The notes beneath the pieces were generated by a model. That model saw only the letters and a list, made by a program, of their open reading frames with translations, was not told the origin of the DNA and did no database searches. Shown one piece after another: positions 723 to 32,000 of a DNA stretch of 32,000 nucleotides. Source of the DNA: Thermodesulfobacterium commune DSM 2178 (GTDB lineage: Bacteria; Desulfobacterota; Thermodesulfobacteria; Thermodesulfobacteriales; Thermodesulfobacteriaceae); assembly GCF_000734015.1 (NCBI RefSeq), contig NZ_CP008796.1:1732046-1764045 (forward strand). The letters run 5' to 3'. Each line of letters opens with the position of its first letter. The first letter of the stretch is position 1. The translations under genes and the position numbers were made by a program.

Positions 723-3128
723 ATGCTCAAAATAGTTTCCATCGTTTGGCAGAGCTATTACAATGCAGTTTTAAGAGCATCAAAAAGTATTAAAGAGTTT
801 AAGATAAAAGTCTACTCAGCAAGAGTCCTTGACTCAAAACCTGAGAGGCTTGATGAAGTCTTGAAAGAGATTAAAGATGCTGATATTTTATTTCTTTATC
901 GTTCAACAGAACCAGTTTGGGAAGAGATAGAAAAAACAATAAAGAAAGAGGGTTTAAAAGCAAAAATAGTATGCCTTGGGCATGATCCTTCTTACTGGAT
1001 GCTTTCCAATGTAGACCATAAGATTGTGCATAAAGCATATAAATATCTCGTGATAAATGGGGAAAAAAATATTAAAAATCTATTTCTCTTTCTTGCTAAT
1101 GAGCTCACCGGTTTAAATATTCTTTATGATGAACCCGAAGAAATTCCATGGGAAGGGCTATATCACCCAAGGGCAGAAATCATTTTTACTGATGTTGAGG
1201 AATATCTCAGCTGGTATCAAAGATACAAACCTCATACATACGGAAAAAATCCCACAGTTGGAATACTTTTTTCGAGGCATTACTGGATAAACGGTAATAC
1301 CGAGGTTGAGGATTTGCTTATTGAAGAGCTTGAGGCAAAGGGATTTAATGTAATCTCAGCGTTTGCCTATTCTGTAAAGGATAATGCTTTAGGAACAAAG
1401 GGTAGCGGAGAGGTAATATTAGATTGGTTCTTTGATGAGCATGGTACACCAAGAATTGATATTATGGTGAAGCTTATCTCCTTTTTCTTGGGAACTAACA
1501 GAGAAAAGACAATAGATAACACTGAAGTAGCCGCAGATGGAGTTGAGATTCTGAAAAGGCTTAATGTGCCGGTTATTTCACCCGTCTCTTCTTATTATAA
1601 AACAATTGAAGAATGGGAAAAGGAAGATTTAAATCTTGATATTGGTTGGTCTATTGCGCTTCCTGAGTTTGAAGGAGTCATTGAGCCAGTTATTATTTCT
1701 GCGCAAAAAGAAGGCTCTGAAGATGAAAGGATAAAAGTCCCAATAAGAGAAAGGGTGAAAAAACTTGTAGAAAGGATTTCTCGATGGGTTGAGCTTAAAA
1801 AAACTCCTGCCCATGAAAGAAGGGTTGCCTTTATACTTCACAACAACCCATGTGCCTCTGTTGAAGCAACGGTTGGCTCAGCTGCTTATCTTGACAGCAT
1901 TGAAAGTGTAGTTGAGATTATGAAAAAGATGAAAGAATCTGGCTACAATGTTGATCCACCTGAGAACGGAAAAGCCTTGATAGATGAGATAATGAGTAAA
2001 AAGGCAATTTCAGAGTTCAGATGGACAACTGTTGAAGAAATCGTTGAAAAAGGTGGTGTTATTGCTTTAGTTGATAAGGAAAAATATCTTGAATGGTTCA
2101 ATGAACTTCCTCCCAAGACCCGTTTAAAAATGATTGAGGCATGGGGAGAGCCTCCAGGGGAACACAAAAATGAAATACCTCCTGCAATGGTTTACGATGG
2201 AAAAATCGTAATCACAGGGCTTAGATTTGGAAATGTTTTGGTTATGGTTCAACCAAAAAGAGGATGTGCAGGAGCAAGATGCGATGGACAGGTCTGTAGA
2301 ATACTTCACGATCCCGATACACCACCACCTCATCAGTATGTGGCAACGTATAAGTGGCTTTCCCGTGAGTTTAAAGCTCATGCAGTAGTTCATGTAGGCA
2401 CTCATGGAAATCTTGAATTTTTGCCAGGTAAAGGGGTTGCCCTTTCTCAAGCCTGTTTTCCTGACATTGGTATTGATACAATGCCTCACCTTTATATTTA
2501 CAATGCCGACAATCCACCTGAGGGTACCATCGCCAAGAGACGCTCTCTGGCAGTTCTTGTTGATCACATGCAGACTGTCCTTACGGAAGGAGGACTTTAC
2601 GATGAACTTTTAGAGCTTGACAGACTCCTTGGTGAGTATGAAGAGGCAAAGAAAAAAGAACCTGCAAGGCTTCATGTTCTTGAACACTTGATAATACATG
2701 CGATTACCAAATCAAAGCTTGACAGAGAGATAAAAGTTTTATGGCAGGGCAAGAAGATTTCACTTTCAGAGTTAAGCCATGATGAGCTGCATCAGATACC
2801 CTTTGAGAAAATTGTGGAAGAAGCGCATGCAAAGCTTTCGCTTATTAGAAATACCCAGATCCAGGATGGTATGCATGTTTTTGGCAGGGTTCCAGAGGCA
2901 GAAAGAAGGATTGATTTTATTTATTCAATTCTAAGATACGATGCAGGAAGTGAAGTTTCACTGAGAAAAGAGATCGCAAAATTACTTGGATACGAGCTTT
3001 CAGATCTTGTTTCGAATCCTCAGGGTTTTGATCCTGAAAAAGGCAAATCCTACGGTGCAATTTTAGAAGAGATAGACAGGATAGGCAAAGAAGTGATAAA
3101 AAAAGTTTTGTTTCAGGAGGTTAACTGA
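723..3128 (+). CDS. cobN: CobN/BchH-family chelatase large subunit, N-terminal two-thirds (split gene)
   Basis: 801-aa ORF with the CobN-family motif HVGTHGNLEFLPGK. ATG 723 is preceded by AGGAGG (711-716). It ends at TGA 3126-3128, overlapping the next ATG (TGATG). Confidence 0.8.
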   Translation: MLKIVSIVWQSYYNAVLRASKSIKEFKIKVYSARVLDSKPERLDEVLKEIKDADILFLYRSTEPVWEEIEKTIKKEGLKAKIVCLGHDPSYWMLSNVDHKIVHKAYKYLVINGEKNIKNLFLFLANELTGLNILYDEPEEIPWEGLYHPRAEIIFTDVEEYLSWYQRYKPHTYGKNPTVGILFSRHYWINGNTEVEDLLIEELEAKGFNVISAFAYSVKDNALGTKGSGEVILDWFFDEHGTPRIDIMVKLISFFLGTNREKTIDNTEVAADGVEILKRLNVPVISPVSSYYKTIEEWEKEDLNLDIGWSIALPEFEGVIEPVIISAQKEGSEDERIKVPIRERVKKLVERISRWVELKKTPAHERRVAFILHNNPCASVEATVGSAAYLDSIESVVEIMKKMKESGYNVDPPENGKALIDEIMSKKAISEFRWTTVEEIVEKGGVIALVDKEKYLEWFNELPPKTRLKMIEAWGEPPGEHKNEIPPAMVYDGKIVITGLRFGNVLVMVQPKRGCAGARCDGQVCRILHDPDTPPPHQYVATYKWLSREFKAHAVVHVGTHGNLEFLPGKGVALSQACFPDIGIDTMPHLYIYNADNPPEGTIAKRRSLAVLVDHMQTVLTEGGLYDELLELDRLLGEYEEAKKKEPARLHVLEHLIIHAITKSKLDREIKVLWQGKKISLSELSHDELHQIPFEKIVEEAHAKLSLIRNTQIQDGMHVFGRVPEAERRIDFIYSILRYDAGSEVSLRKEIAKLLGYELSDLVSNPQGFDPEKGKSYGAILEEIDRIGKEVIKKVLFQEVN

Positions 3129-4597
3129 TGGAAATTTTAAAGAAGATTGACTGGCAAAGACCAGAATGGAAGGCAATAAAGGAAAAAATTCTTGAAATTA
3201 ACAGAAAGATTGAGGAATCACGTGAGATAGAATCTTTACTTCATGGACTTTCTGGAGGGTATATTCCTCCAGGTCCTTCAGGATTGATAGCCCGTGGAAG
3301 GGATGATGTTTTACCTACAGGGAGAAACTTTTACAGCCTTGATCCCCACAGAGTTCCTACAAAAACTGCCTTTGAGATTGGTAAAAGACTTACTGAAAAA
3401 CTTATTGAAAAGCATGTTACTGAAGAGGGGAGATATCCAGAAAATGTTGCTATTTATTGGCAGTGCTCAGACATCATGTGGGCAGATGGAGAGGGTATGG
3501 GTCAGATTATGTATCTTTTAGGAGTAAAGCCTATATGGCTTTCCAATGGAAGGGTCAAAGGGTTTGAAATAATTCCTTTAAATGAGCTTGGTAGACCCCG
3601 CATTGATGTCACCATCAGGGTCTCAGGTATTACAAGAGACAATTTCCCGATGTGCATCGAACTTATAGATGAGGCCATACAAGTAGTTGCCTCTTTAGAT
3701 GAGCCATTGGATATGAATTTTGTTCGCAAGCATACTTTAGAGTTAATTGCTCAAAATGAAGTTGACTTTCGTTCAGCAACATTAAGAGTTTTCTGCTCAA
3801 TGCCTGGTACCTATCAAGCAGGGACTCAGCTTGCTGTTTATGCTTCGGCATGGAAAGAAGAAAAAGACCTTGCGGAAGTATTTCTTTACTGGAATGGATA
3901 TGCCTACGGAAAGGGAATCTGGGGTGAAAGCAAGCATAAAGAGTTTGCCCAGATTTTAAAAAGCGTTGATATTACTTACAATAAAGTAGTATCAGACGAG
4001 TACGATCTTTTGGGATGTTGCAGTTATTTTGGAACTTATGGAGGAATGACAGCTGCAGCAAGGCATTTAAGTGGTAAGGAGGTAAAAACCTACTATGGAG
4101 ATACAAGAAATCCTGACCATGTAGAGGTAAGAACACTTTCTGATGAGATAAGACGTGTGGTAAGGACAAAGCTTCTAAATCCAAAATGGATTGAGGGAAT
4201 GAAGAGACACGGATATAAAGGTGCTGGGGATATTTCAAAAAGAATAGGAAGAGTCTATGGTTGGGAAGCAACAACTAAAGAAGTTGATGACTGGATATTT
4301 GATGACATAGCAAGAACATTTATCATGAACGAGGAAAATAGAAAATTTTTTGAGGAACATAATCCATGGGCGATGGAAGAGATTGCCAGAAGACTTATTG
4401 AGGCGATGGAGCGCGGATTGTGGAATCCTTCCGAGGATGTAAAAGAGGTCTTGAAGGTATTTTATCTTGAAATTGAAGGCTGGATAGAAGAAAAAATGGG
4501 AGATATTAAAGGGGATTTTCAAGGAGGTTCAATTGATGTTATAACAGCAGAAGAGGTAGAGTTCTGGAAAAATAAAATGAGAGAGGTAATAAAATGA
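3128..4597 (+). CDS. cobN: CobN/BchH-family chelatase large subunit, C-terminal third (split gene)
   Basis: 489-aa ORF with the CobN motif [13 protein letters not shown]. It has its own SD, AGGAGG 3115-3120, 7 nt before ATG 3128. 801+489 aa together equal a normal full-length CobN. Confidence 0.8.
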
Positions 4598-20122: not shown

Positions 20123-21525
20123 CTTAACTTAAAAATAATACTATTATCAAAAGGAGGGGTAAAATGCCTAAGGTAGGTGTATATGTATGTCATTGTGGAG
20201 AAAACATTAAGGGTGCGGTTAATATCCAGGAAGTAGTAGAGTTTGCTAAGACCTTACCTGATGTAGTGGTTGTGAGGGACTATCAGTTTATGTGTTCTGA
20301 CCCTGGGCAAGAGTTGATCAAGAATGATATTAAAGAAGGGCTGGTTGACAGGGTTGTGGTTGCTGCTTGTACTCCAAGGACTCATGAGGCTATCTTTAGG
20401 GTAGCTGTTGAGTCAACTGGTTTGAACAAATATTTTTGTGAGATGGCTAACATAAGAGACCAGGATAGCTGGGCTCATTGGCATGATAAAGAGGGGGCTA
20501 CCAAAAAGGCTAAAAGGCTTGTTGCCAGTGCGGTGGCTAAGGTAAGATTGGCAGAGCCTTTAGAAGATCGCTTTCAGGATGCAGAAAAGTCGGTTTTGGT
20601 GGTAGGAGGTGGGATCGCAGGTATCTTTGCTGCTTTAGACCTGGCAACGATAGGTTTAAAGGTTTATCTGGTAGAAAAACAGCCTTCTATCGGTGGGGTT
20701 ATGGCCAAGCTTGACAAGACCTTTCCTACGATGGACTGTTCAGCTTGTATCTTAACCCCAAAGATGGTTGAGGTTGCCCAGCATCCTAACATCGAACTTA
20801 TCACCTATGCCGAGGTAGAAGATGTTAAGGGTTATGTAGGAAACTTTGAGGTTACCATCAGGAAAAAAGCCAGATATGTAGACTGGGATAAGTGCACAGG
20901 TTGTGGTCACTGTATGAACATTTGTCCTTCCAAGGCTCCAAACGAGTTTAACCTTGGTTTGGATAAAAGACCAGCCATTTACATAGAGTTTCCACAGGCA
21001 GTGCCTAAGAAGGCGGTGATAGACGCAGACAACTGTTTGTATTTTAAGACTTTGAGAAAGACAGGTAAGACAGCCTGTCAGATCTGTCAGAAGGGTATAC
21101 CTAGCAAGAACATCGAGGGTTGTCCGGCGGGGGCGATCAACTATGAGGACAAGGATGAGTTTATCAAGGTAAAGGTAGGGGCTGTAATACTGGCTACAGG
21201 GTTTAAGGTTATGGACAAACATCATTTTAAGGAATACTCCCCTAATTGTCCTGATGTTCTTACTGCCCTTGAGTTTGAAAGACTTATTTCTGCTACAGGG
21301 CCTACGGAAGGGCAGCTTAAAAGACTTTCTGACGGGCAAAAGCCCAAAAAATTAGCCTTCATCTCTTGTGTAGGAAGCAGAGATGAAAGACATCACAGTT
21401 ATTGTTCAAAGGTTTGTTGTATGTATATGTTTAAGCATGCCAAGATTCTCAAAGAGAAGTATCCAGACATAGACCTATATCTTTTCTTCATAGACGTGAG
21501 GACTGCAGGAAAGGATTTCGAAGAG

Positions 21526-21533
21526 TTTTATGT
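21526..21533. repeat. Target-site duplication, left copy (TTTTATGT)
   Basis: An 8-bp direct repeat abuts both IS ends. A single copy is present at the equivalent site of hdrA2 (…GAATTTTATGTTTAC…). Confidence 0.85.
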
Positions 21534-22872
21534 GACACTTGTCAAGAGAATTGTGTCTCCTTATAAAATCTCTTTACAAACATTTGCCTCAATTCGTATA
21601 AAGCAGACTTAATTAAAGGAAGTGGTTTTTGCCATCTCGTTTTCTGAATCCGACTTACTGTTATGTATATCGCAACCTCTGCTGTCTTGATTGATTGAAA
21701 ATATCCCCCTGTATTTACCCTTATCAGCTCTATCCTGCTATTTATATTCTCAACCACATTCGTCGTGTATATATACCTCCTCACCCCCTCAGGATATTTC
21801 TTATAAACAAAATAATGCTCCTTCTTTTTCAAAAGTCCCTTTATATAAGCTGGATACTTCTTCTCATAACTCTTACATAATTCCTCAAATCTATTTAAGG
21901 CCCTCTCATACTCCTCTATCCTCTTTATAATGCTTAACTCCTCATAAAATTTTTTAGCATCCTGCTTAGACATGTTCCTGTTGATGTTCCTTTGCATGTG
22001 TACAAAACAAAGCTGATGATCTGTCTCAGGAAAGAGGGCTTTTATGGCTTGAGTAAGGCCAGGAAAATCATCACTCACTATTACCATAACCCTCTTAACT
22101 CCCCTCTTTATCAAATCATTAAGTATCTGGAGCCAGTCCTCCTTCGTCTCTGAACCAAAATAAATGTAATAAGAAAGTAAATTTTTTCTTCCCTCCATAT
22201 CTATCCCGATGATATTATAAATAACTGCTTTTCTGATTCTGTTGGCTTCGGTATCTTTTATCTGAGTATGATAAGCGTCTATAAACATAGCAAACAAATT
22301 TTCTGGCAATTCTTTGGTTTTTAATTCTTTGGCTTGGTTATACAATTCTTCTTTAATTTCTTCTATTTGTTCTGGGGAGTAGGGGAGTTTCATAGATTGC
22401 AAGAGGGCTTTGATTTTATTGGGGGAGTAGCTTTGGAGAACGAGGTTAAGGATAAAGTCCTGGAAGGATTCATCAGCTTTTTGCCATTCAGGAGGAAGAA
22501 TAGCAGGTCTGAATTCAGATTTTCTATCTCTTGGGACAGAGATACCAAGGTTACCTAAGAAACAGGCAAGTTGTCTTTCATAGTAACCATTAGCTTTATT
22601 ATCAATACTATCTCTAAGGAATATTTCTCTTTCTTTTTTCATGAGAGCGTTTAAGAGGAGTGCAGCAGCCATTTTGATACCCTCTTTTGATTCAATTTTT
22701 GAGATTTCACTTAAAACTTTTTCTAAATCTAAGTCTAAGTTTTCCATTTTACAGACCTCCTGGTTAGTTTAGTCTTTTAGGTTTTATGTTATCATTAATT
22801 TAAAAAATATTAAAAATTTTTATTATGCCTCTAAAATATTTTATTAAAAGACACAATTTATATTCTACTCCC
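21534..22872 (-). mobile_element. IS256-family insertion sequence (1,339 bp), intact
   Basis: Boundaries come from comparison with the uninterrupted paralog hdrA2 and from the flanking 8-bp direct repeat TTTTATGT. Imperfect terminal repeats share AATTGTGTCT...TAAAAT (compare the AATTGTGT core of IS256 ends). There is a single 401-aa transposase ORF. Confidence 0.9.
21542..22747 (-). CDS. IS256-family (Mutator-type, Transposase_mut) DDE transposase
   Basis: 401 aa. Candidate DDE residues in MFIDAYH, IVSDDFPGL and TTNVVENINSRIE; the family motif CFVHMQRN is present. Confidence 0.9.
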   Translation of the reverse strand: MENLDLDLEKVLSEISKIESKEGIKMAAALLLNALMKKEREIFLRDSIDNKANGYYERQLACFLGNLGISVPRDRKSEFRPAILPPEWQKADESFQDFILNLVLQSYSPNKIKALLQSMKLPYSPEQIEEIKEELYNQAKELKTKELPENLFAMFIDAYHTQIKDTEANRIRKAVIYNIIGIDMEGRKNLLSYYIYFGSETKEDWLQILNDLIKRGVKRVMVIVSDDFPGLTQAIKALFPETDHQLCFVHMQRNINRNMSKQDAKKFYEELSIIKRIEEYERALNRFEELCKSYEKKYPAYIKGLLKKKEHYFVYKKYPEGVRRYIYTTNVVENINSRIELIRVNTGGYFQSIKTAEVAIYITVSRIQKTRWQKPLPLIKSALYELRQMFVKRFYKETQFS

Positions 22873-22880
22873 TTTTATGT
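22873..22880. repeat. Target-site duplication, right copy (TTTTATGT)
   Basis: See the left copy. An 8-bp TSD is typical of IS256-family elements. Confidence 0.85.
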
Positions 22881-23541
22881 TTCTACCAAACAACTTGGAG
22901 CCAAGGTAATAAGGGGAGGAAGGGTTTCAGCGGTAGATGTAAAACCTGATGGTAAGTTAAGGGTCAGGGCATATGACAACGACCTTTGCAGTCCGGTAGA
23001 GGTGGATGTAGACATGGTGGTTTTGGCAACAGCAATTGAGCCAGGTCCAGACACAGAGAAACTTGGAAGGCTTTTTAGTGCAAGTTGTGGTAGGGAAGGA
23101 TTTATCAGAGAAGTTCACACCAAACTTTATCCAGTAGATACCGCTTCTAAAGGTGTTTTTGTCTGCGGTTGTGTACAGGGACCTAAGGACATTCCTGATT
23201 CTGTTTCTCAAGCTAAAGCAGCAGCTGCTTCAGCAGCCGCAACCGTTATCCCAGGGAAGATTAAGTTTGAGGCTATAGCTGCCGAGGTGATAAGGGATAA
23301 GTGTAGTAGTTGTGGGGTATGTGTACAGCTTTGTCCATATAACGCGATAGTGCTTGAGGAGTATAACGGGGTTTATAAGGCCAAGGTTGAGCCAGCCCTT
23401 TGTGCTGGATGTGGAACCTGTGCAGCAGCTTGTCCTTCTAAGGCTATCATCTTTCATGGATTCTCTACCGAACAAGTGCTTGCGCAAATAGAGGCCATAG
23501 TGGAAGACTATCCAAATCTATAAACCAAAGGGGGTAGGATA

Positions 23542-24084
23542 ATGGAGAAGGAAGTGAATGTTATAAAGTTAGACGAGGAGTTTATGAAGGAGTTTTGGGA
23601 AGAGCTTGAGGCGATGGGGATGCCTGTTAAGGAGTTGAGGGAGTGTATCCAGTGTGGTAGGTGTGCGGCAACTTGTCCGATGGCGTTAGCTGGGTTGGAG
23701 TATTTTATCAAGAGGATAGTGCATGCGAGCATGTTGGGGTTGAAGGAGATATTTTTGGATGATTCATCGGTGTGGGGGTGTCAGAGTTGTAACCGGTGTG
23801 TGGAGGTATGTCCGATGGACATTAAGCCATATGAGTTGATACAGGCGATAAGGAGGGTGTGTTTTAGGGAGTATGCGATGCCATCTAACACGATAGATGG
23901 TTTGAGGAACTATTATGAGAGGGGGCATGCGGTGATAGTTAAGGGATTTGAGGAGAGGAGGAAGAAGGTGGGGTTACCTGAGATGCCACCTACGGTGATA
24001 GGGAATGAGGAGATGAGGAAGAAGTTTCAGGAGGTAATGAAGCAGACAGCGTTAGCAGAGGTAGCACCGTTTCCACTTGACTAA
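23542..24084 (+). CDS. hdrC: Heterodisulfide reductase subunit C
   Basis: 180 aa with two 4Fe-4S ferredoxin motifs, CIQCGRCAATCP and CQSCNRCVEVCP. SD AAGGGGG upstream. Confidence 0.9.
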   Translation: MEKEVNVIKLDEEFMKEFWEELEAMGMPVKELRECIQCGRCAATCPMALAGLEYFIKRIVHASMLGLKEIFLDDSSVWGCQSCNRCVEVCPMDIKPYELIQAIRRVCFREYAMPSNTIDGLRNYYERGHAVIVKGFEERRKKVGLPEMPPTVIGNEEMRKKFQEVMKQTALAEVAPFPLD

Positions 24085-24102: not shown

Positions 24103-25005
24103 ATGAAGAGGGTAGGATTGTTTTTAGGATGTAACATACCGTTGAGGAGGCCGGATATAGAGTATTCGATGAGGTATTTGTTGAAGGAGTTGGGGGTGGA
24201 GGTAGTGGATTTAGAGGGAGCGACATGTTGTCCGGCGTTTGGGACGATGCCATCGGTGGATTTAGTGGGGTGGTGTGTGGGATCAGCGTGGAACATGGCG
24301 ATAGCAGAGGGTAAGGGATTAGAGGTGATGGTAACGGGGTGTGGTAGTTGTTATGGGAGTTTGAATGAGGCGAGATATCACATGGAGAAGCATCCTGAGA
24401 TAAAGGAGAAGGTTAACGAGATACTGGGAAGTGTGGGTATGAGGTATGAGGGGAAGGTGAAGGTGTACAACATATACAATTATATATATGATTTTATTGG
24501 GTTAGAGGAGTTGAGGAAGGCGGTGAAGTATCCGTTGAATGGGATGGTATGTGGGGTGCAGGTAGGGTGTCACAATTTATGGCCGAGCAAGGCGTATCCG
24601 GCGAATGATGAGAATACGTTTCAGCCGAGGAGGTTGAGGGAGATATGTGAGGCGTTAGGAGGGGTAGCGCCGTGGTATAGCATGATGACAGATTGTTGTG
24701 GTATGGGTGCGTTGGGTAGTTTAGCGAGGGACAAGTCTTGGAGTTTGTTTAAGAAGAAGGCGAGTAAGATGATAGAGGAGATAAATCCTGAGGTATTTGT
24801 GACGGGGTGTAGTAGTTGTTTGTTGAGGTTTGACAACGATCAGGCTCAGATGAAGAAGGAGGGGGTAATAGATTTTGAGGTACCGGCGGTGCATGTGGCG
24901 CAGTTGGTTGCGTTGGCGTTGGGGGCGGAGCCGGAGAAGGCGGTAGGTTTGGCAGAGGTGCCAGTAGACAAGGTGGTAGAAAAAATAAGAGCAGGAGGTA
25001 AGTGA
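24103..25005 (+). CDS. hdrB: Heterodisulfide reductase subunit B
   Basis: 300 aa with two CCG-type Cys-rich domains (GATCCPAFG; MTDCCGMGA plus GCGSCY/GCSSC). SD AGGAGGG upstream. Confidence 0.9.
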   Translation: MKRVGLFLGCNIPLRRPDIEYSMRYLLKELGVEVVDLEGATCCPAFGTMPSVDLVGWCVGSAWNMAIAEGKGLEVMVTGCGSCYGSLNEARYHMEKHPEIKEKVNEILGSVGMRYEGKVKVYNIYNYIYDFIGLEELRKAVKYPLNGMVCGVQVGCHNLWPSKAYPANDENTFQPRRLREICEALGGVAPWYSMMTDCCGMGALGSLARDKSWSLFKKKASKMIEEINPEVFVTGCSSCLLRFDNDQAQMKKEGVIDFEVPAVHVAQLVALALGAEPEKAVGLAEVPVDKVVEKIRAGGK

Positions 25006-25006
25006 T

Positions 25007-25417
25007 ATGAGTTGGGAGCCAAAGATAGTGGTTATAGCTTGTAACTGGTGTACCTATGCTGCGGCAGACCTGGCAGGTAGTTTAAGATATAGTTATCCAC
25101 CTACAGCATATATAGTAAGGGTTCCCTGTAGTGGTAGGGTAGAGCCTGAGTTTATAGTAGAGGCTTTAAAAACAGGAGCAGACGCTGTGTTAGTGGGTGG
25201 CTGACCTCCTGGGGACTGTCATTACCGGTCAGGTAATTACAAGGCATTGAGGCGTTTTAAGCTTTTGAAGAGGGTGTTAGAGGAGTTGGGAGTGGAAGGA
25301 GACAGGGTGAGGCTTGAGTGGATATCAGGTAGTGAGGGTAAGAAGTTTGCGGACATAATAACGGAGATGGATGCCAAGGTAAGGGAACTAGGACCAAATC
25401 CAATGAAGGGGGTATAG
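25007..25417 (+). CDS. mvhD: Hydrogenase delta subunit MvhD/VhuD-like, selenocysteine-containing (UGA at 25202-25204 read through)
   Basis: The ORF track stops at ...DAVLVGG. The same frame continues after TGA as PPGDCHYRSGNYKALRRFKLLKRVLEELGVEGDRVRLEWISGSEGKKF..., completing the MvhD pattern G-[C/U]-xxGDCHY, and ends at TAG 25415-25417, 3 nt before the mvhG ATG. A SECIS-like hairpin lies 12 nt after the UGA. Confidence 0.8.
25217..25241 (+). promoter_or_regulatory. SECIS-like stem-loop for mvhD UGA
   Basis: UGU-C-AUUACC [GGUCA] GGUAAU-U-ACA: 3 bp, a C/U mismatch, 6 bp, then a 5-nt loop containing GGU. It starts 12 nt 3' of the UGA, the position and loop type expected for a bacterial SECIS. 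Confidence 0.65.
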
Positions 25418-25420
25418 GAG

Positions 25421-26377
25421 ATGAGTAAGCCTAAGTTAGCATATTACCTGGCAGGAGGATGTGCAGGTTGTGATATAAGTTTGGTAGATTTAGCTGATTT
25501 TTTGGTGGATGTGGTTAGTGCGGTGGACATAGTGTTTTTTGCGCCTACACTTGTGGATGTGAAGTATAAGGATTTTGAGGCATTGCCAGATGGGTCGGTG
25601 GATGTGGGTTTGTTGACAGGTAACATAAGGAACAAGGAACATGAGCATATGGCGAAGGTGATGAGGGCGAAGTGTAAGGTGTTGATAGCGTATGGTATAT
25701 GTGCGAGTTTAGGTGGTATCAAGGGTTTGGTTAATTTGTATAGTAATCAGGAGTTGTTGGAGAAGGCGTATAGGGATACGTTTAGTACAGACAATCCTAC
25801 AGGGGAGTTACCGAGTCCCAAGTATGTGGTAGATGGGAAGTATGAGTTGGAGTTGCCGGAGTTGACGGAGGCCAGAACGTTGGATCAGGTGGTGGAGGTG
25901 GATTATTACATAGGAGGGTGTCCGCCGCATTATGAGCATGTGAAGGCGGCGTTGGTTGCGTTGTTAGAGGGTAAGTTACCGCCGAGGGGTAGTTGGATAA
26001 CGATGGGGCATGCGGTGTGTGAGGTATGTTCGAGGAACCCTGTGTTGAGGGGGGAGAAGAAGAAGCCTGTATTAGAGGTTAGGAGGGTGATAGAAGGGGG
26101 AGTAGAGGAGGAGGCATGTTTGCTTGAGGCGGGGTATTTGTGTTTAGGTCCTGTTACACAGGGAGACTGTGGAGCGAGTTGTTTGAAGGTGAACGTGCCG
26201 TGTAGGGGATGTGGAGGGCCGATACCAGGGGTAAGGGATTATGGTTTGAGGGCGATAAGTGCGATAGCGAGTGCATTGGAAAACGAGGAGTTGGTAGACA
26301 GGATAGAGGACCCTGTGAGGTTGTTTTACCGGTATAGTTTGCCAGGGTCTATGATAGGGAAGAGGCTTGGAAAGTAG
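25421..26377 (+). CDS. mvhG: F420-non-reducing [NiFe]-hydrogenase small subunit (MvhG-like)
   Basis: 318 aa. N-terminal GGCAGCDISLVD and distal Fe-S motifs (GGCPP, CEVC, CLGPVTQGDCGASC, CRGCGGP). Confidence 0.85.
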   Translation: MSKPKLAYYLAGGCAGCDISLVDLADFLVDVVSAVDIVFFAPTLVDVKYKDFEALPDGSVDVGLLTGNIRNKEHEHMAKVMRAKCKVLIAYGICASLGGIKGLVNLYSNQELLEKAYRDTFSTDNPTGELPSPKYVVDGKYELELPELTEARTLDQVVEVDYYIGGCPPHYEHVKAALVALLEGKLPPRGSWITMGHAVCEVCSRNPVLRGEKKKPVLEVRRVIEGGVEEEACLLEAGYLCLGPVTQGDCGASCLKVNVPCRGCGGPIPGVRDYGLRAISAIASALENEELVDRIEDPVRLFYRYSLPGSMIGKRLGK

Positions 26378-26412
26378 GTAAGAAGATAAAAAACAGAGAG
26401 GAGGGGAAGGGT

Positions 26413-27876
26413 ATGCAGAGGATAGAGATAAATCCCATGACAAGGCTTGAGGGTCATGGGAAGATAACGATATTTTTGGATGACAAGGGGAATGTGGACA
26501 ATGCCTTTTGGCAGGTAGTAGAGTTTATGGGATATGAGAAGTTTTTGATAGGTATGCCTATAGAGGAGGTACCAAGGACAGTAAGTACCGTCTGTGGGGT
26601 ATGTAGGGCTGTTCATTTTATGGCCTCGTTGAAGGCCGCAGATGAGGTATATGGGGTAAAGCCTACGGAGACGGCGAGGAAGTTGAGGGAGTTGTTTTAT
26701 TATGCGCATTATGTAGAGGACCACATGGAGATCATATATGCGTTGGGGTTGCCTGATTTTGTTTGTGGGCCTACGGCATCTCCAGCAGAGAGGAACTTGG
26801 TTGGGTTGATTATGAAGGTGGGAGTTGATGTAGGAAGAGATGTTTTGAAGAAGAGATTTGCTGCTGTTAGGATCTTTGAGATCCTTGGAGGAAGGCCAAG
26901 CCATCCAGTGGCAGCGATACCCGGGGGATGGAGCAAGAGGCTGAAGGAGGAGGAAAGGCAGGAGATACTGAGGTATGCGGATGAGTGTGTGGAGTTAGGG
27001 AAGTTTACGCTTAAGGCGTTTAAGGATTTGGTGTTAAGTAATCCTCAGTATGTGGAGTTGATAAAGGGGGACATTTACAAGGTGGTGACGAATTATTTGG
27101 GAACGGTGGATGAGGCTGGGAAGGTAACCTATTATGATGGTACACAGGTGTTTGTGGACACGAAGGGTAATGAGATAGGTAGGTTTAGTGGTAAGGAGTA
27201 TTTGGAGTGGATAGCAGAGAGGACGTTGCCGTGGAGTTATCAGAAGGCACCGTACATTAAGAAGTTAGGTTGGAAGGGGATAGTGGATGGAGAGGGAACG
27301 AGTTTATACAGTGTGGGGCCGCTAGCGAGGTTTAACGTGGGGAATGGATTTGACACACCTGGTGCGCAGGAGGCGTATGAGGAGATGGTAGAGTTTTTTG
27401 GAGGGAAGCCTGTGCATAACATACTGGGTTATCACTGGGCGAGGGCGATAGAGTTGTTACATTGTGCGGAGAAGGTGAAGGAGCTTGCGTCAGACGAGAG
27501 TATCACAGCTCCTGACGTGAGGCAGGAGTTAGGTGAGGCATTAGGAGAGGGAGTAGGGATTGTTGAGGCAGCGAGGGGAACGCTTATTCATCATTACAAG
27601 ACAGACAGTAAGGGTATAGTAACTGACGCAAACATCATAGTTGCAACCACCCACAACAAAGGGTCTATAAACATAGCGATCAAGAGGGCGGCAGAGAATT
27701 TTATCAAGGAAGGAAAGGTAGATGAGGGAATTTTAAACTTGGTAGAGATGGCTTACAGGCCCTATGACCTTTGTCTTGCCTGTTCTACCCACACCTTACC
27801 TGGGAAGTTGCCTGTGCAGATAGACATCTACACCAAGGACGGAGAGCTGGTAAAAAGTTTGAGAAACTTTAAATAA
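26413..27876 (+). CDS. mvhA: F420-non-reducing [NiFe]-hydrogenase large subunit (MvhA-like)
   Basis: 487 aa. N-terminal RLEGHG and Ni-binding CGVCRAVH; C-terminal Ni-binding DLCLACSTH (both Cys, not Sec). Confidence 0.9.
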   Translation: MQRIEINPMTRLEGHGKITIFLDDKGNVDNAFWQVVEFMGYEKFLIGMPIEEVPRTVSTVCGVCRAVHFMASLKAADEVYGVKPTETARKLRELFYYAHYVEDHMEIIYALGLPDFVCGPTASPAERNLVGLIMKVGVDVGRDVLKKRFAAVRIFEILGGRPSHPVAAIPGGWSKRLKEEERQEILRYADECVELGKFTLKAFKDLVLSNPQYVELIKGDIYKVVTNYLGTVDEAGKVTYYDGTQVFVDTKGNEIGRFSGKEYLEWIAERTLPWSYQKAPYIKKLGWKGIVDGEGTSLYSVGPLARFNVGNGFDTPGAQEAYEEMVEFFGGKPVHNILGYHWARAIELLHCAEKVKELASDESITAPDVRQELGEALGEGVGIVEAARGTLIHHYKTDSKGIVTDANIIVATTHNKGSINIAIKRAAENFIKEGKVDEGILNLVEMAYRPYDLCLACSTHTLPGKLPVQIDIYTKDGELVKSLRNFK

Positions 27877-27900
27877 AATTCAAATTTTCTGATCTCAATT

Positions 27901-27931
27901 AAGTAGGGGGATCTCCCCCTACTTTCTTTTA
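27901..27931 (+). terminator. Rho-independent terminator after mvhA
   Basis: An 11-nt arm AAGTAGGGGGA (27901-27911) pairs perfectly with TCCCCCTACTT (27914-27924), followed by TCTTTT. It lies 25 nt after the mvhA stop. Confidence 0.75.
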
Positions 27932-28142
27932 ATCTATTGCTTTTAAAATCTTAAATTAAAACTGACAGGTTTTCAAATACACCTGTTCAAAAAGTGTCAT
28001 TTAGGATAGCTCTTCATGTGTAAACTGTGTTTTGTATAAATATAAAAAGTAAAAATTTTAAAAAACAAATAAAAATGTTTAAATTTTTTAGAAAAGTTAA
28101 ATAAAAAAAGGAAAAAATAAGAAAAAAAGCTTTTAAGTCTAT

Positions 28143-28171
28143 TTGACTTTGATTATTAGTATTTTATAAAT
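28143..28171 (+). promoter_or_regulatory. Putative promoter of hdrA2
   Basis: TTGACT (28143-28148), a 16-nt spacer, then TATAAA (28165-28170). It is embedded in TCTATTTGACTT (28138-28149), identical to the motif upstream of hdrA1. A long A-rich tract lies upstream. Confidence 0.4.
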
Positions 28172-28216
28172 AAATAATGAAGGGACTAATAGAATATCAA
28201 AATAAGGGGGTTAGAC

Positions 28217-29059
28217 ATGCCAAAGGTTGGGGTTTATGTATGTCATTGTGGTGAGAACATTAAAGGTGGGCTTAATATCCAGGAGTTGGTAGAGTTTGCC
28301 AAAACATTGCCTGATGTGACAGTAGTGAGAGATTATTTCTTCATGTGTTCTGACCCTGGGCAGGAGTTGATCAAGAATGATATTAAAGAGGGTTTAGTTG
28401 ACAGGGTGGTAGTTGCTGCTTGTACTCCAAGAACTCATGAGCCTATTTTTAGGGCAGCGGTAGAGTCAGCAGGTTTAAACAAGTATTTTTGTGAAATAGC
28501 TAACATAAGAGACCAGAATACCTGGGCTCACTGGGGGAAGATTAAAGAGGCTACAGACAAGGCTAAAAGGATCATAAAAAGCGCGGTAGCTAAGGTAAGA
28601 TTGGCTGAACCTTTAGAAGACCGTTTTGAACCTATGGAAAAGTCTGTTTTGGTGGTAGGTGGTGGAATTGCAGGTATGTTTGCTGCTTTAGACTTAGCTA
28701 ACATGGGTTTAAAGGTTTATCTGGTAGAGAAAAGGCCTTCTATAGGCGGGAACATGGCTATGCTTGACAAAACGTTCCCGACTATGGACTGTTCGGCTTG
28801 AATACTCACCCCCAAGATGGGCGAGGTCGCCCAGCATCCTAACATCGAACTTATCACCTATGCCGAGGTAGAAGATGTTAAGGGTTATGTAGGTAACTTT
28901 GAAGTTACCATAAGAAAAAAAGCCAGGTATGTAGACTGGGATAAGTGTACAGGTTGTGGTCACTGTATGAACATTTGTCCTTCCAAGGCTCCAAACGAGT
29001 TTAACCTTGGTCTGGATAAGAGACCGGCTATTTATATACAATTTCCTCAGGCAGTGCCC
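28217..29059 (+). pseudogene. hdrA: Heterodisulfide reductase subunit A, Sec-type copy (hdrA2), 5' part (codons 1-281) ending at a rearrangement junction
   Basis: Colinear with hdrA1 20164..21006 without indels and roughly nine-tenths identical by eye. In-frame TGA 28799-28801 lies exactly where hdrA1 has Cys (DCSA-C/U-ILTPKM). Homology ends after ...FPQAVP at 29059, where the sequence switches to the reverse complement of the hdrB 3' end. Confidence 0.85.
28816..28835 (+). promoter_or_regulatory. SECIS-like stem-loop for hdrA2 UGA
   Basis: Core 28818-28833 is UGGGCG [AGGU] CGCCCA: a 6-bp GC-rich stem with a GGU-containing tetraloop, starting 16 nt 3' of the UGA. The Cys-type copy has UGGUUG AGGU UGCCCA at the same place, which cannot form the full stem. 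Confidence 0.6.
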
Positions 29060-29062
29060 ATA

Positions 29063-29965
29063 TCACTTACCTCCTGCTCTTATTTTTTCTACCACCTTGT
29101 CTACTGGCACCTCTGCCAAACCTACCGCCTTCTCCGGCTCCGCCCCCAACGCCAACGCAACCAACTGCGCCACATGCACCGCCGGTACCTCAAAATCTAT
29201 TACCCCCTCCTTCTTCATCTGAGCCTGATCGTTGTCAAACCTCAACAAACAACTACTACACCCCGTCACAAATACCTCAGGATTTATCTCCTCTATCATC
29301 TTACTCGCCTTCTTCTTAAACAAACTCCAAGACTTGTCCCTCGCTAAACTACCCAACGCACCCATACCACAACAATCTGTCATCATGCTATACCACGGCG
29401 CTACCCCTCCTAACGCCTCACATATCTCCCTCAACCTCCTCGGCTGAAACGTATTCTCATCATTCGCCGGATACGCCTTGCTCGGCCATAAATTGTGACA
29501 CCCTACCTGCACCCCACATACCATCCCATTCAACGGATACTTCACCGCCTTCCTCAACTCCTCTAACCCAATAAAATCATATATATAATTGTATATGTTG
29601 TACACCTTCACCTTCCCCTCATACCTCATACCCACACTTCCCAGTATCTCGTTAACCTTCTCCTTTATCTCAGGATGCTTCTCCATGTGATATCTCGCCT
29701 CATTCAAACTCCCATAACAACTACCACACCCCGTTACCATCACCTCTAATCCCTTACCCTCTGCTATCGCCATGTTCCACGCTGATCCCACACACCACCC
29801 CACTAAATCCACCGATGGCATCGTCCCAAACGCCGGACAACATGTCGCTCCCTCTAAATCCACTACCTCCACCCCCAACTCCTTCAACAAATACCTCATC
29901 GAATACTCTATATCCGGCCTCCTCAACGGTATGTTACATCCTAAAAACAATCCTACCCTCTTCAT
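29063..29965 (-). CDS. hdrB: Heterodisulfide reductase subunit B, second copy (identical to 24103..25005)
   Basis: The 300-aa translation is identical to the first copy. It lies within the perfect inverted repeat arm. Confidence 0.85.
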   Translation of the reverse strand: MKRVGLFLGCNIPLRRPDIEYSMRYLLKELGVEVVDLEGATCCPAFGTMPSVDLVGWCVGSAWNMAIAEGKGLEVMVTGCGSCYGSLNEARYHMEKHPEIKEKVNEILGSVGMRYEGKVKVYNIYNYIYDFIGLEELRKAVKYPLNGMVCGVQVGCHNLWPSKAYPANDENTFQPRRLREICEALGGVAPWYSMMTDCCGMGALGSLARDKSWSLFKKKASKMIEEINPEVFVTGCSSCLLRFDNDQAQMKKEGVIDFEVPAVHVAQLVALALGAEPEKAVGLAEVPVDKVVEKIRAGGK

Positions 29966-29983
29966 CTCTTCCCTCCTTTTTCT

Positions 29984-30526
29984 TTAGTCAAGTGGAAACG
30001 GTGCTACCTCTGCTAACGCTGTCTGCTTCATTACCTCCTGAAACTTCTTCCTCATCTCCTCATTCCCTATCACCGTAGGTGGCATCTCAGGTAACCCCAC
30101 CTTCTTCCTCCTCTCCTCAAATCCCTTAACTATCACCGCATGCCCCCTCTCATAATAGTTCCTCAAACCATCTATCGTGTTAGATGGCATCGCATACTCC
30201 CTAAAACACACCCTCCTTATCGCCTGTATCAACTCATATGGCTTAATGTCCATCGGACATACCTCCACACACCGGTTACAACTCTGACACCCCCACACCG
30301 ATGAATCATCCAAAAATATCTCCTTCAACCCCAACATGCTCGCATGCACTATCCTCTTGATAAAATACTCCAACCCAGCTAACGCCATCGGACAAGTTGC
30401 CGCACACCTACCACACTGGATACACTCCCTCAACTCCTTAACAGGCATCCCCATCGCCTCAAGCTCTTCCCAAAACTCCTTCATAAACTCCTCATCCAAC
30501 TTTATAACATTCACTTCCTTCTCCAT
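29984..30526 (-). CDS. hdrC: Heterodisulfide reductase subunit C, second copy (identical to 23542..24084)
   Basis: The 180-aa translation is identical to the first copy. It lies within the perfect inverted repeat arm. Confidence 0.85.
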   Translation of the reverse strand: MEKEVNVIKLDEEFMKEFWEELEAMGMPVKELRECIQCGRCAATCPMALAGLEYFIKRIVHASMLGLKEIFLDDSSVWGCQSCNRCVEVCPMDIKPYELIQAIRRVCFREYAMPSNTIDGLRNYYERGHAVIVKGFEERRKKVGLPEMPPTVIGNEEMRKKFQEVMKQTALAEVAPFPLD

Positions 30527-30556
30527 TATCCTACCCCCTTTGGTTTCTTTCTTTTA

Positions 30557-31709
30557 TTAATCAACCGTTATAGCTCTAATCTGCTCTATTATCTGCTCGG
30601 TGGTAAATCCATGGAAAACGATGGCTTTGGAAGGACAAGCTGCTGCACAGGTTCCACATCCAGCACAAAGGGCTGGCTCAACCTTGGCCTTATAAACCCC
30701 TTTATACTCTTCAAGCACTATCGCGTTATATGGACAAAGCTGTATACATACACCACAACTACTACACTTATCCCTTATCACCTCGGCAGATATAGCTTCA
30801 AACCTGATTTTACCTGGTAATACCAAAGCTGCCGCCGCAGAAGAAGCAGCCCTTGATTGAGCGATAGATTCTGGAATATCCTTAGGCCCCTGCACACATC
30901 CTGCGATAAATACGCCTTTAGCAGAAGTTTCTACTGGATAAAGTTTGGTGTGAACTTCTCTGATAAATCCTTCCCTACCACAACTGGCACTAAAAAGCCT
31001 TCCAAGTTTCTCTGTGTCTGGACCTGGCTCAATTGCTGTTGCCAAAACCACCATGTCTACATCCACCTCTACCGGACTGCAAAGGTCGTTGTCATATGCC
31101 CTGACCCTTAACTTACCATCAGGTTTTACATCTACCGCTGAAACCCTTCCTCCCCTTATCACCTTGGCTCCAAGCTTCTTGGTGTAAACATAAAATTCCT
31201 CAAAATCCTTTCCTGCAGTCCTCACATCTATAAAGAAAAGATAAAGGTCTATGTCTGGATACTTCTCTTTGAGAATCCTTGCATGTTTCATGATATACAT
31301 ACAACAAACTTTAGAACAATAAGTATGATATCTTTCGTCTCTACTTCCTACACAGGCTATAAAAGCCATTTTCTTTGGTTTTTGCCCGTCAGAAAGTCTT
31401 TTAAGCTGCCCCTCCGTAGGACCTGTAGGAGAAAGAATACGTTCAAACTCCATAGCAGTAACCACATCTGGACAGTTAGGAGAATATTCTTTAAAATGAT
31501 ATTTTTCCATCGGTTTAAAACCTGTTGCCAAGATCACAGCCCCTACCTTTACCTTGATAAACTCATCCTTGTCCTCATAGTTGATCGCCCCCGCCGGACA
31601 ACCCTCGATGTTCTTGCTAGGTATACCCTTCTGACAGATCTGACAGGCTGTCTTGCCTGTCTTTCTCAAAGTCTTAAAATACAAACAGTTGTCTGCATCT
31701 ATCACTGCC
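30557..31709 (-). pseudogene. hdrA: hdrA2 3' part (about codons 284-666), inverted relative to its 5' part and fused upstream to an IS end and a GGDEF fragment
   Basis: The minus-strand translation from 31708 reads AVIDADNCLYFKTLRK... through to ...IRAITVD-stop. It is colinear with hdrA1 21013..21533 + 22881..23523 and uninterrupted at the hdrA1 IS site (EEFYVYTKKLGAKV). Confidence 0.85.
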
Positions 31710-31742
31710 TTATAAGGAGACACAATTCTCTTGACAAGTGTC
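31710..31742 (-). mobile_element. Solo 33-nt terminal fragment of the IS256-family element
   Basis: The reverse complement equals GACACTTGTCAAGAGAATTGTGTCTCCTTATAA, identical to 21534..21566 (the end nearest the transposase stop). No IS interior follows it. Confidence 0.85.
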
Positions 31743-32000
31743 CCTACTTCCTCAAAAGGGTAGGTCGCTATACTCTGTCTGATTCTTTCAGCTATAACCA
31801 AAGCTTCTTCTTTAATAGTCCTAGGACAAAGGATTACAAACTCCTCTCCTCCCCATCGAGCTGGCAAATCGGTTTGCCTGATGTTTTCTTTTATCAAACG
31901 GGAAACCTCTTTTAACACATAATCTCCCCTATCATGCCCATAAGTATCGTTAATAACTTTAAAATTATCGAGGTCAAAAAGTATAACAGAAAAGGAGGTC
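31743..32000 (-). pseudogene. GGDEF-domain (diguanylate cyclase) gene fragment, 3'-truncated by the IS end; 5' end outside window
   Basis: The minus-strand frame reads ...FSVILFDLDNFKVINDTYGHDRGDYVLKEVSRLIKENIRQTDLPARWGGEEFVILCP...YPFEEVG and then runs directly into the IS end. The distal part of the GGDEF domain is missing. Confidence 0.75.

Follow-up and report, generated by a model that had tools for sequence, protein, structure and literature searches.

We analysed a window of 32,000 nucleotides (nt) from the genome of Thermodesulfobacterium commune DSM 2178 (contig NZ_CP008796.1, positions 1,732,046 to 1,764,045), which holds two paralogous genes for HdrA, here called hdrA1 and hdrA2, together with genes for HdrC, HdrB, MvhD, MvhG and MvhA. 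In the MvhADG/HdrABC hydrogenase-heterodisulfide reductase complex, HdrA provides the flavin and iron-sulfur subunit. Our subject is an in-frame TGA codon in hdrA2, the hairpin that follows it in the transcript, and whether the two together represent a selenocysteine (Sec) codon and its selenocysteine insertion sequence (SECIS). All positions are those of the window, and related loci that need to be told apart carry L numbers. The features at the centre of the question are the following.

28217 to 29059, plus strand: hdrA2, Sec form, codons 1-281 only, corresponding to the start of the intact hdrA2 of L055 and L057-L060 (99.9% for L058, 96.8% for L057).
28799 to 28801, plus strand: TGA, probably read as selenocysteine, aligned with Cys197 of HdrA by comparison with relatives and solved structures.
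28818 to 28833, plus strand: SECIS-like hairpin with the conserved core GGGCG (28819-28823)-AGGU-CGCCC (28828-28832), from folding and from relatives.

The reading frame of hdrA1, from 20164, runs FPTMDCSA-C-ILTPKMVEVAQ with TGT at 20746-20748, and that of hdrA2, from 28217, runs FPTMDCSA-TGA-ILTPKMGEVAQ with TGA at 28799-28801, so that the TGA lies exactly at the Cys codon of the paralogue, as a preliminary description of this DNA had stated. That description had also argued that the UGA is not a real stop, and here too the evidence agrees with it. Downstream of the TGA there are 86 homologous open codons, to codon 281 at 29059, where the homology ends because hdrA2 is broken at 29058/29059 (past the break the open frame consists of some 95 further codons, antisense to hdrB2, and ends at 29347); in L055 and L005 all 470 codons 3' of the TGA are intact. 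All 36 of the other distinct forms have TGT or TGC in this column. A 120-residue segment that includes the TGA gives a gap-free alignment with solved HdrA chains, and its position 53 falls on residue 197 of 5odc_A, which is Cys in 5odc and a non-standard 'X' in 9sfi_A, the latter corresponding to Sec197 of M. maripaludis. This selenocysteine (U197) was described in a 2026 cryo-EM study (PMC13518236), and in the crystallised complex Cys197 of HdrA is a ligand to the partner HdrA's N-terminal [4Fe-4S] cluster (PMC9012536). The UGA therefore occupies the documented Sec position of the family by both structural alignment and the literature, which likewise bears out the earlier view of HdrA as an established selenoprotein family: HdrA, MvhD (there called FrhD) and FrhA are all listed as such for bacteria (PMC1794560). 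Our protein search also returned matches of 466-467 residues that start at a Met five codons past the TGA, a signature of gene callers halting at the Sec codon; genes of this kind are cut into pieces of 194 and 466 amino acids.

The hairpin of hdrA2 reads U-GGGCG-AGGU-CGCCC-A, with 16 nt between the TGA and the first stem base, and folding of the 62 nt past the TGA gives it as the minimum-energy structure (-10.7 kcal/mol). At the equivalent site hdrA1 has UGGUUG-AGGU-UGCCCA, and the two differences that close the stem, GTT>GGC (Val to Gly) and GTT>GTC, are present as first described. The 6-bp stem proposed at the outset stands in part: all six pairs occur in hdrA2, but the outer U-A pair is not conserved among relatives, being C/A in Thermodesulfovibrio and U-G in T. 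hydrogeniphilum, and the core is thus 5 bp.

For comparison we used the contigs behind the protein matches and a genome scan, covering Thermodesulfobacterium, Thermodesulfatator and Thermodesulfovibrio. The sequence GGGCGAGGTCGCCC is unchanged in 15 of 15 distinct TGA-bearing relatives from these three genera, about 19-20 nt past the TGA, and is found in none of the collected TGT or TGC forms. Across the 15 TGA forms the hairpin codons GGC GAG GTC GCC vary at none of their four third positions, as compared to 15 of 16 flanking ones (Fisher p = 0.001), and in 8 close Cys forms all four hairpin codons are variable. Since the codons are frozen in TGA forms and free in Cys forms, the Gly in place of Val is a price paid for the RNA structure, as the preliminary description had guessed.

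A wider, unbiased sample was obtained by scanning metagenomes for FPT[LM]DC[SA]x-TGA, which gave at least 120 matches; together with the genome loci this makes 128 distinct TGA sequences, and the figures that follow for TGA forms refer to the matches listed plus the genome loci. A stem of 5 bp or more with a G-rich loop of 3-6 nt, starting 23-31 nt from the U of the UGA, is present in 125 of the 128 TGA forms and in 9 of 36 Cys forms (p = 5e-20), and the mean fold energy is -11.6 kcal/mol in the former and -6.2 kcal/mol in the latter (p = 5e-17). The loops are GGUC, GUG, AGGU, GGC, GUU, GGU and GGA. In other clades this place is taken by other stems, and compensatory changes are seen among some of them, e.g., GGAUGCC/GGCAUCC as compared to GGAUGUC/GACAUCC. 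In the published description (PMC4605307), a bacterial SECIS has a 6-8 bp stem and, some 20 nt past the UGA, a conserved G in the loop. The element of hdrA2 fits this geometry: its stem-loop starts within the range of about 11-25 nt past the UGA, and its apical loop has a G (GGU). With a structure that is kept alongside UGA, lost from Cys forms and protected at synonymous sites, the proposal that the hdrA2 hairpin behaves like a bacterial SECIS is well supported at the level of sequence comparison.

Several observations nevertheless weigh against a selenocysteine reading of this locus. The hairpin alone folds no better than shuffled sequences (z = -0.57; 50 of 200 shuffles fold equally well), and its significance comes solely from the comparison with relatives. 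Within the clade of hdrA2 the stem is invariant, which is conservation without covariation, the compensatory changes being confined to the hairpins of other clades. Rfam yielded nothing relevant on the hairpin region at a permissive threshold, nor in the whole window at gathering scores. No selA, selB, selC or selD lies within the 32 kb, where Pfam scans of the window genes found no sel gene, and no tRNA gene at all was found in the window. Finally, hdrA2 as assembled cannot yield a functional HdrA, and Sec insertion in it would be without useful product.

A competing explanation holds that hdrA2 is a decaying gene, its TGA an ordinary nonsense mutation and the hairpin a coincidence. The state of the window, with hdrA2 broken and hdrA1 disrupted, is in keeping with this, as is the showing of the hairpin against shuffles. 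Against it, the TGA recurs together with an identical 14-nt hairpin in 15 distinct sequences that represent two phyla, and the contigs that hold the whole gene have an intact downstream frame. In addition, more than 120 further TGA forms occur at this column, which is the documented Sec197 position. The comparative data have effectively refuted this explanation. We consider instead, with a probability of roughly 0.85, that hdrA2 encodes a Sec-type HdrA and has inherited its TGA as a selenocysteine codon, for which the downstream hairpin serves as the SECIS.

As to the decoding machinery, neither the window nor any of 14 related loci was found to contain a tRNA-Sec. Two relatives, T. thermophilum DSM 1276 and T. 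hveragerdense DSM 12571, match the locus at 92-98% DNA identity and are listed as Sec-utilizing with 4 and 5 selenoproteins, respectively (PMC5029168, Table S2). PMC5389517 reports complete selABCD sets together with tRNA(Sec)-like tRNA(Cys) genes in Thermodesulfobacteria genomes, and such tRNA(Cys) genes (selC*) in Thermodesulfovibrio as well. This raises another scenario, in which the UGA is read as cysteine by a selC* tRNA with a UCA anticodon, at least under selenium shortage, and the Sec-type cluster is then not strictly selenium-dependent. We regard this as unlikely: no selC*-type tRNA lies in the window or the related loci, and the separate all-Cys cluster of intact relatives, described below, argues against Cys read-through as the main backup.

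Further support for Sec decoding comes from a second in-frame TGA, again followed by a hairpin with a GGU loop, in the mvhD gene of the window. The genes of this region are as follows.

23542 to 24084 (hdrC1) and 24103 to 25005 (hdrB1), plus strand: their proteins are identical to those of the inverted hdrC2 and hdrB2.
25007 to 25417, plus strand: mvhD, with an in-frame TGA at 25202-25204 (VLVGG-U-PPGDCHY), the second Sec gene of the window.
25421 to 26377 (mvhG) and 26413 to 27876 (mvhA), plus strand.
27901 to 27934, plus strand: terminator-like hairpin and T run after mvhA, followed by the upstream region of hdrA2 with the TCTATTTGACTT box.

The mvhD hairpin, AUUACC-GGUCA-GGUAAU at 25221-25237, lies 18 nt downstream of its TGA, at a distance like that of the hdrA2 hairpin, and its folding has no significance on its own. 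In mvhA the window has TGT at 26602-26604, where the Sec-cluster paralogues have TGA (CGV-U), and the hairpin GGCCUCGUUGAAGGCC is retained at 26622-26637 despite the TGT.

The relation between the two clusters is best seen in L055, a metagenome contig of 154 kb whose identity to the window is 99.96% in the part upstream of the insertion sequence (IS) treated below. Its order is proC, hdrA1(Cys)-hdrC1-hdrB1-mvhD1-mvhG1-mvhA1, hdrA2(Sec)-hdrC2-hdrB2-mvhD2-mvhG2-mvhA2-hycI. Cluster 1 has Cys at HdrA 195, MvhD 66 (GGCHPGDCHY) and MvhA 64 (CGVC), and cluster 2 has TGA at HdrA 195, MvhD 66 and MvhA 64; L055 is thus a tandem duplication of a six-gene hdrACB-mvhDGA cluster, with one all-Cys and one triple-Sec copy. 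The hdrA2 gene is intact also in L057-L060, and T. hveragerdense has a contiguous Sec-type hdrA2-hdrC-hdrB-mvhDGA. In the window the TCTATTTGACTT box stands upstream of both hdrA1 and hdrA2. Each cluster is preceded by an upstream region of its own, and the terminator-like hairpin lies between the clusters. The earlier suggestion of neighbouring Cys and Sec isoforms of HdrA is thus borne out by intact relatives such as L055, where both occur whole in one genome, but not by the window as assembled, where both hdrA genes are interrupted.

Some related observations may be recorded here. In L055 the mvhD hairpin also persists in the Cys copy mvhD1. Sec clusters with a CGV-U mvhA are those of L055 (15092), L056, L001, L006, L012-L014, L020, L039 and L084, and the hairpin after this codon is conserved as GGCCUC..GAAGGCC or, with a compensatory change, AGCCUC..GAAGGCU. 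In the literature an N-terminal CXXU occurs in rare cases among Group 1 and Group 3 hydrogenases and in 27 cases in Group 4 (PMC13582414).

With regard to ancestry, a neighbour-joining tree places the two hdrA paralogues as each other's closest relatives with Sec forms around them, and TGA plus hairpin are found also in outgroups from two phyla. Judged from this distribution, Sec and the hairpin are the ancestral state and the Cys copy hdrA1 is derived, having lost both; the preliminary description, in which the hairpin had been created in hdrA2, had the direction reversed. Per 100 nt, the identity between hdrA1 and hdrA2 fluctuates between 73% and 100%, an indication of gene conversion. A comparable pattern is seen at 24172-27876, where the single mvhD-mvhG-mvhA of the window is a patchwork of stretches identical to cluster 1 or cluster 2 of L055: its MvhD protein is the Sec-type MvhD2 of L055, and codon 64 of its mvhA is of the Cys type. 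This patchwork derives either from gene conversion between tandem copies or from assembly collapse of two copies.

Both hdrA copies of the window are damaged, each in its own manner, and the parts concerned are these.

20164 to 21533, plus strand: 5' part of hdrA1, codons 1-456 and two bases of codon 457, Cys form.
21534 to 22872, minus strand: IS256-family insertion sequence of 1339 bp, with its transposase at 21542-22747 (minus strand; Pfam Transposase_mut, 1.2e-63).
22881 to 23523, plus strand: 3' part of hdrA1, from the last base of codon 457 to the stop.
29059 to 31711, minus strand: inverted block with hdrB2 (29063-29965), hdrC2 (29984-30526) and hdrA2 codons ~283-665 (30557-31711), seen as inverted repeats I1 and I2.
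31710 to 31742, minus strand: left end of the IS, its first 33 nt (inverted repeat I4, 100% identical), with the outer terminus toward the GGDEF gene and the inner side fused to hdrA2 codon ~283.
31743 to 32000, minus strand: 5' part of a GGDEF-domain gene (profile positions 58-111 of 161), cut by the IS end and running off the window.

The IS256-family element lies inside hdrA1 and is flanked by an 8-bp target duplication, TTTTATGT (21526-21533 and 22873-22880); its limits of 1339 bp are identical in 7 independent copies. Removal of the element and of one target duplication restores a 670-residue HdrA whose DNA is 99.96% identical to L055 hdrA1. As a side observation, the transposase occurs on 23 short contigs from many samples, and the element is multi-copy. 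The halves of hdrA2 lie on opposite strands, 28217-29059 (plus) and 31711-30557 (minus); they jointly match residues 2-661 of solved HdrA (E = 1e-200), and when joined they give an in-frame HdrA of 665 residues, one Lys short. The inverted block starts with the ATG of the lost mvhD2 and is 98.9% identical to hdrA2-hdrC2-hdrB2 of L055 in the opposite orientation, and the Sec-type mvhDGA is gone from its usual place 3' of hdrB2, save for the stretches now inside cluster 1. In consequence, the full HdrA architecture (N-terminal Fe-S, FAD/thioredoxin-reductase-like with inserted ferredoxin, C-terminal ferredoxin) is found in one frame in neither copy of the window.

One possible explanation, though we think it the less probable one, is that the break in hdrA2 and the inverted block are a misassembly arising from several kb of near-identical duplication, the real genome being intact as in L055; the Sec reading would be unaffected by this. 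Near-identical contigs with intact hdrA2 (L055, L057-L060) are what such an account predicts, and the mosaic of both L055 clusters in the mvhDGA of the window fits it. The 24-mer spanning the junction is in no contig of the JGI metagenomes, and exact look-ups of the chimeric open reading frames (28817-29347 and 20164-21612) gave no record. The NCBI draft L056 (GCA_000746435.1) contains segments 100% identical to the window that are differently ordered, along with further odd joins and a gap of Ns, and since the two orders differ, at least one of the assemblies is wrong or heterogeneous. On the other hand, L056 breaks hdrA2 at exactly the same nucleotide as the window, and in a different species, T. 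hveragerdense (L042), hdrA1 is broken at that nucleotide too and joined to the IS interior. The joins share no more than 1-2 nt, and errors of graph-based assembly ordinarily depend on long words in common. The right junction likewise resembles real genome history, with an exact IS terminus of 33 nt set directly against a truncated GGDEF gene.

The break follows CAGGCAGTGCC in hdrA2 of the window, in hdrA2 of L056 and in hdrA1 of L042, with a different partner sequence each time (29058/29059 and 31709-31711 in the window; 10842 and 11584 in L056; 10842 in L042). What is lost there is TAAGAA, between two AGGCAGTG repeats, and the metagenome contigs are intact at this point. It is conceivable, and we put it forward as a long shot, that the shared breakpoint is not an assembly accident and marks instead a hot spot of sequence-specific breakage or rearrangement (e.g., a nuclease or restriction-type target) that recurrently inactivates hdrA in cultured strains.

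We considered four mechanisms for the junctions, namely homologous recombination, transposition, a single inversion and a TspRI-like cut, and found none that accounts for all of them. Homologous recombination between the 2.1-kb inverted repeats is rejected because flipping 25010-29058 fails to restore hdrA2. IS256-type transposition is rejected because the two IS junctions lie within the element (at nt 33 in the window and nt ~286 in L042) and are not transposition ends, and a single large inversion predicts the N-terminal part of hdrA2 joined to nt 34 of the IS, which is absent from the window. A TspRI-like (CASTG) cut fits both break positions, but the partner ends have no site, and we mention it as speculation. 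The palindromic CASTG pentamer is about two-fold rarer in the window than in shuffles (18 as compared to 37.8 +/- 5.9), and two copies flank the breakpoint region of hdrA.

Returning to selenocysteine decoding at the hdrA2 TGA, the proposed course of events is as follows. The stem-loop GGGCG-AGGU-CGCCC, about 20 nt past the UGA, would act as the SECIS of hdrA2; SelB carrying Sec-tRNA(Sec) would bind this hairpin while the ribosome stands at the UGA; and Sec would be inserted at the position of residue 197 (HdrA 195 here). The gene itself is a member of the second, Sec-type copy of the tandem hdrA-hdrC-hdrB-mvhD-mvhG-mvhA cluster. In Methanococcus under selenium limitation, Cys isoforms replace Sec enzymes, with Vhc replacing Vhu (PMC2933860; PMC13518236), and by analogy the two clusters of intact relatives probably represent isoenzymes for selenium-replete (Sec) and selenium-poor (Cys) conditions.

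With respect to selenoproteins as such, these findings add little: HdrA, MvhD and the large subunits of [NiFeSe] hydrogenases are already Sec families, and the genus is already listed as Sec-using. The comparison with relatives does provide a clean natural example of a 14-nt coding hairpin that is frozen together with its UGA and decays once the codon is TGT, which is useful for annotation and for the training of SECIS predictors. It also provides a bacterial case in which a whole hydrogenase/heterodisulfide-reductase cluster has been duplicated into all-Cys and triple-Sec versions. We caution that the locus as given is rearranged or misassembled and that neither hdrA copy should be annotated as functional unless this is checked.

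Elsewhere in the window a CobN/Mg-chelatase gene at 723-4597 appears as two open reading frames with a 1-base overlap at 3128, covering profile positions 1-655 and 676-1088; either a frameshift or a natural split may lie behind this.

Among known systems the closest is the Sec-HdrA of Methanococcus and Methanocaldococcus (Sec197), Deltaproteobacteria and Clostridia, which is of the same family, has Sec in the same column and has MvhD/VhuD as a selenoprotein partner. The locus differs from these in its gene order, hdrA-hdrC-hdrB-mvhD-mvhG-mvhA, and in the truncation of the window copy, and from the archaeal members in that a bacterial SECIS directly follows the UGA within the coding sequence, whereas the archaeal one is in an untranslated region. 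The hairpin resembles the SECIS elements of E. coli fdhF and Moorella thermoacetica fdhA, being a short G+C-rich stem after the UGA with a GGU(C) loop whose first G is at 24 nt; its conserved stem of 5 bp (6 in this genome) is at the short end of the 6-8 bp of that type, and binding by SelB is predicted. Intact relatives, with whole subunit sets present twice and the same Sec/Cys positions, parallel the Methanococcus pairs Vhu/Fru (Sec) and Vhc/Frc (Cys), although here the duplication is recent and in tandem, gene conversion is ongoing and both hdrA copies of the window are interrupted. The MvhA of the relatives' Sec clusters, with its CGV-U and conserved hairpin, recalls the N-terminal CxxU of [NiFeSe] hydrogenases, a likeness that is limited to paralogues in related loci, as the mvhA of the window itself carries Cys at that position (TGT at 26602).

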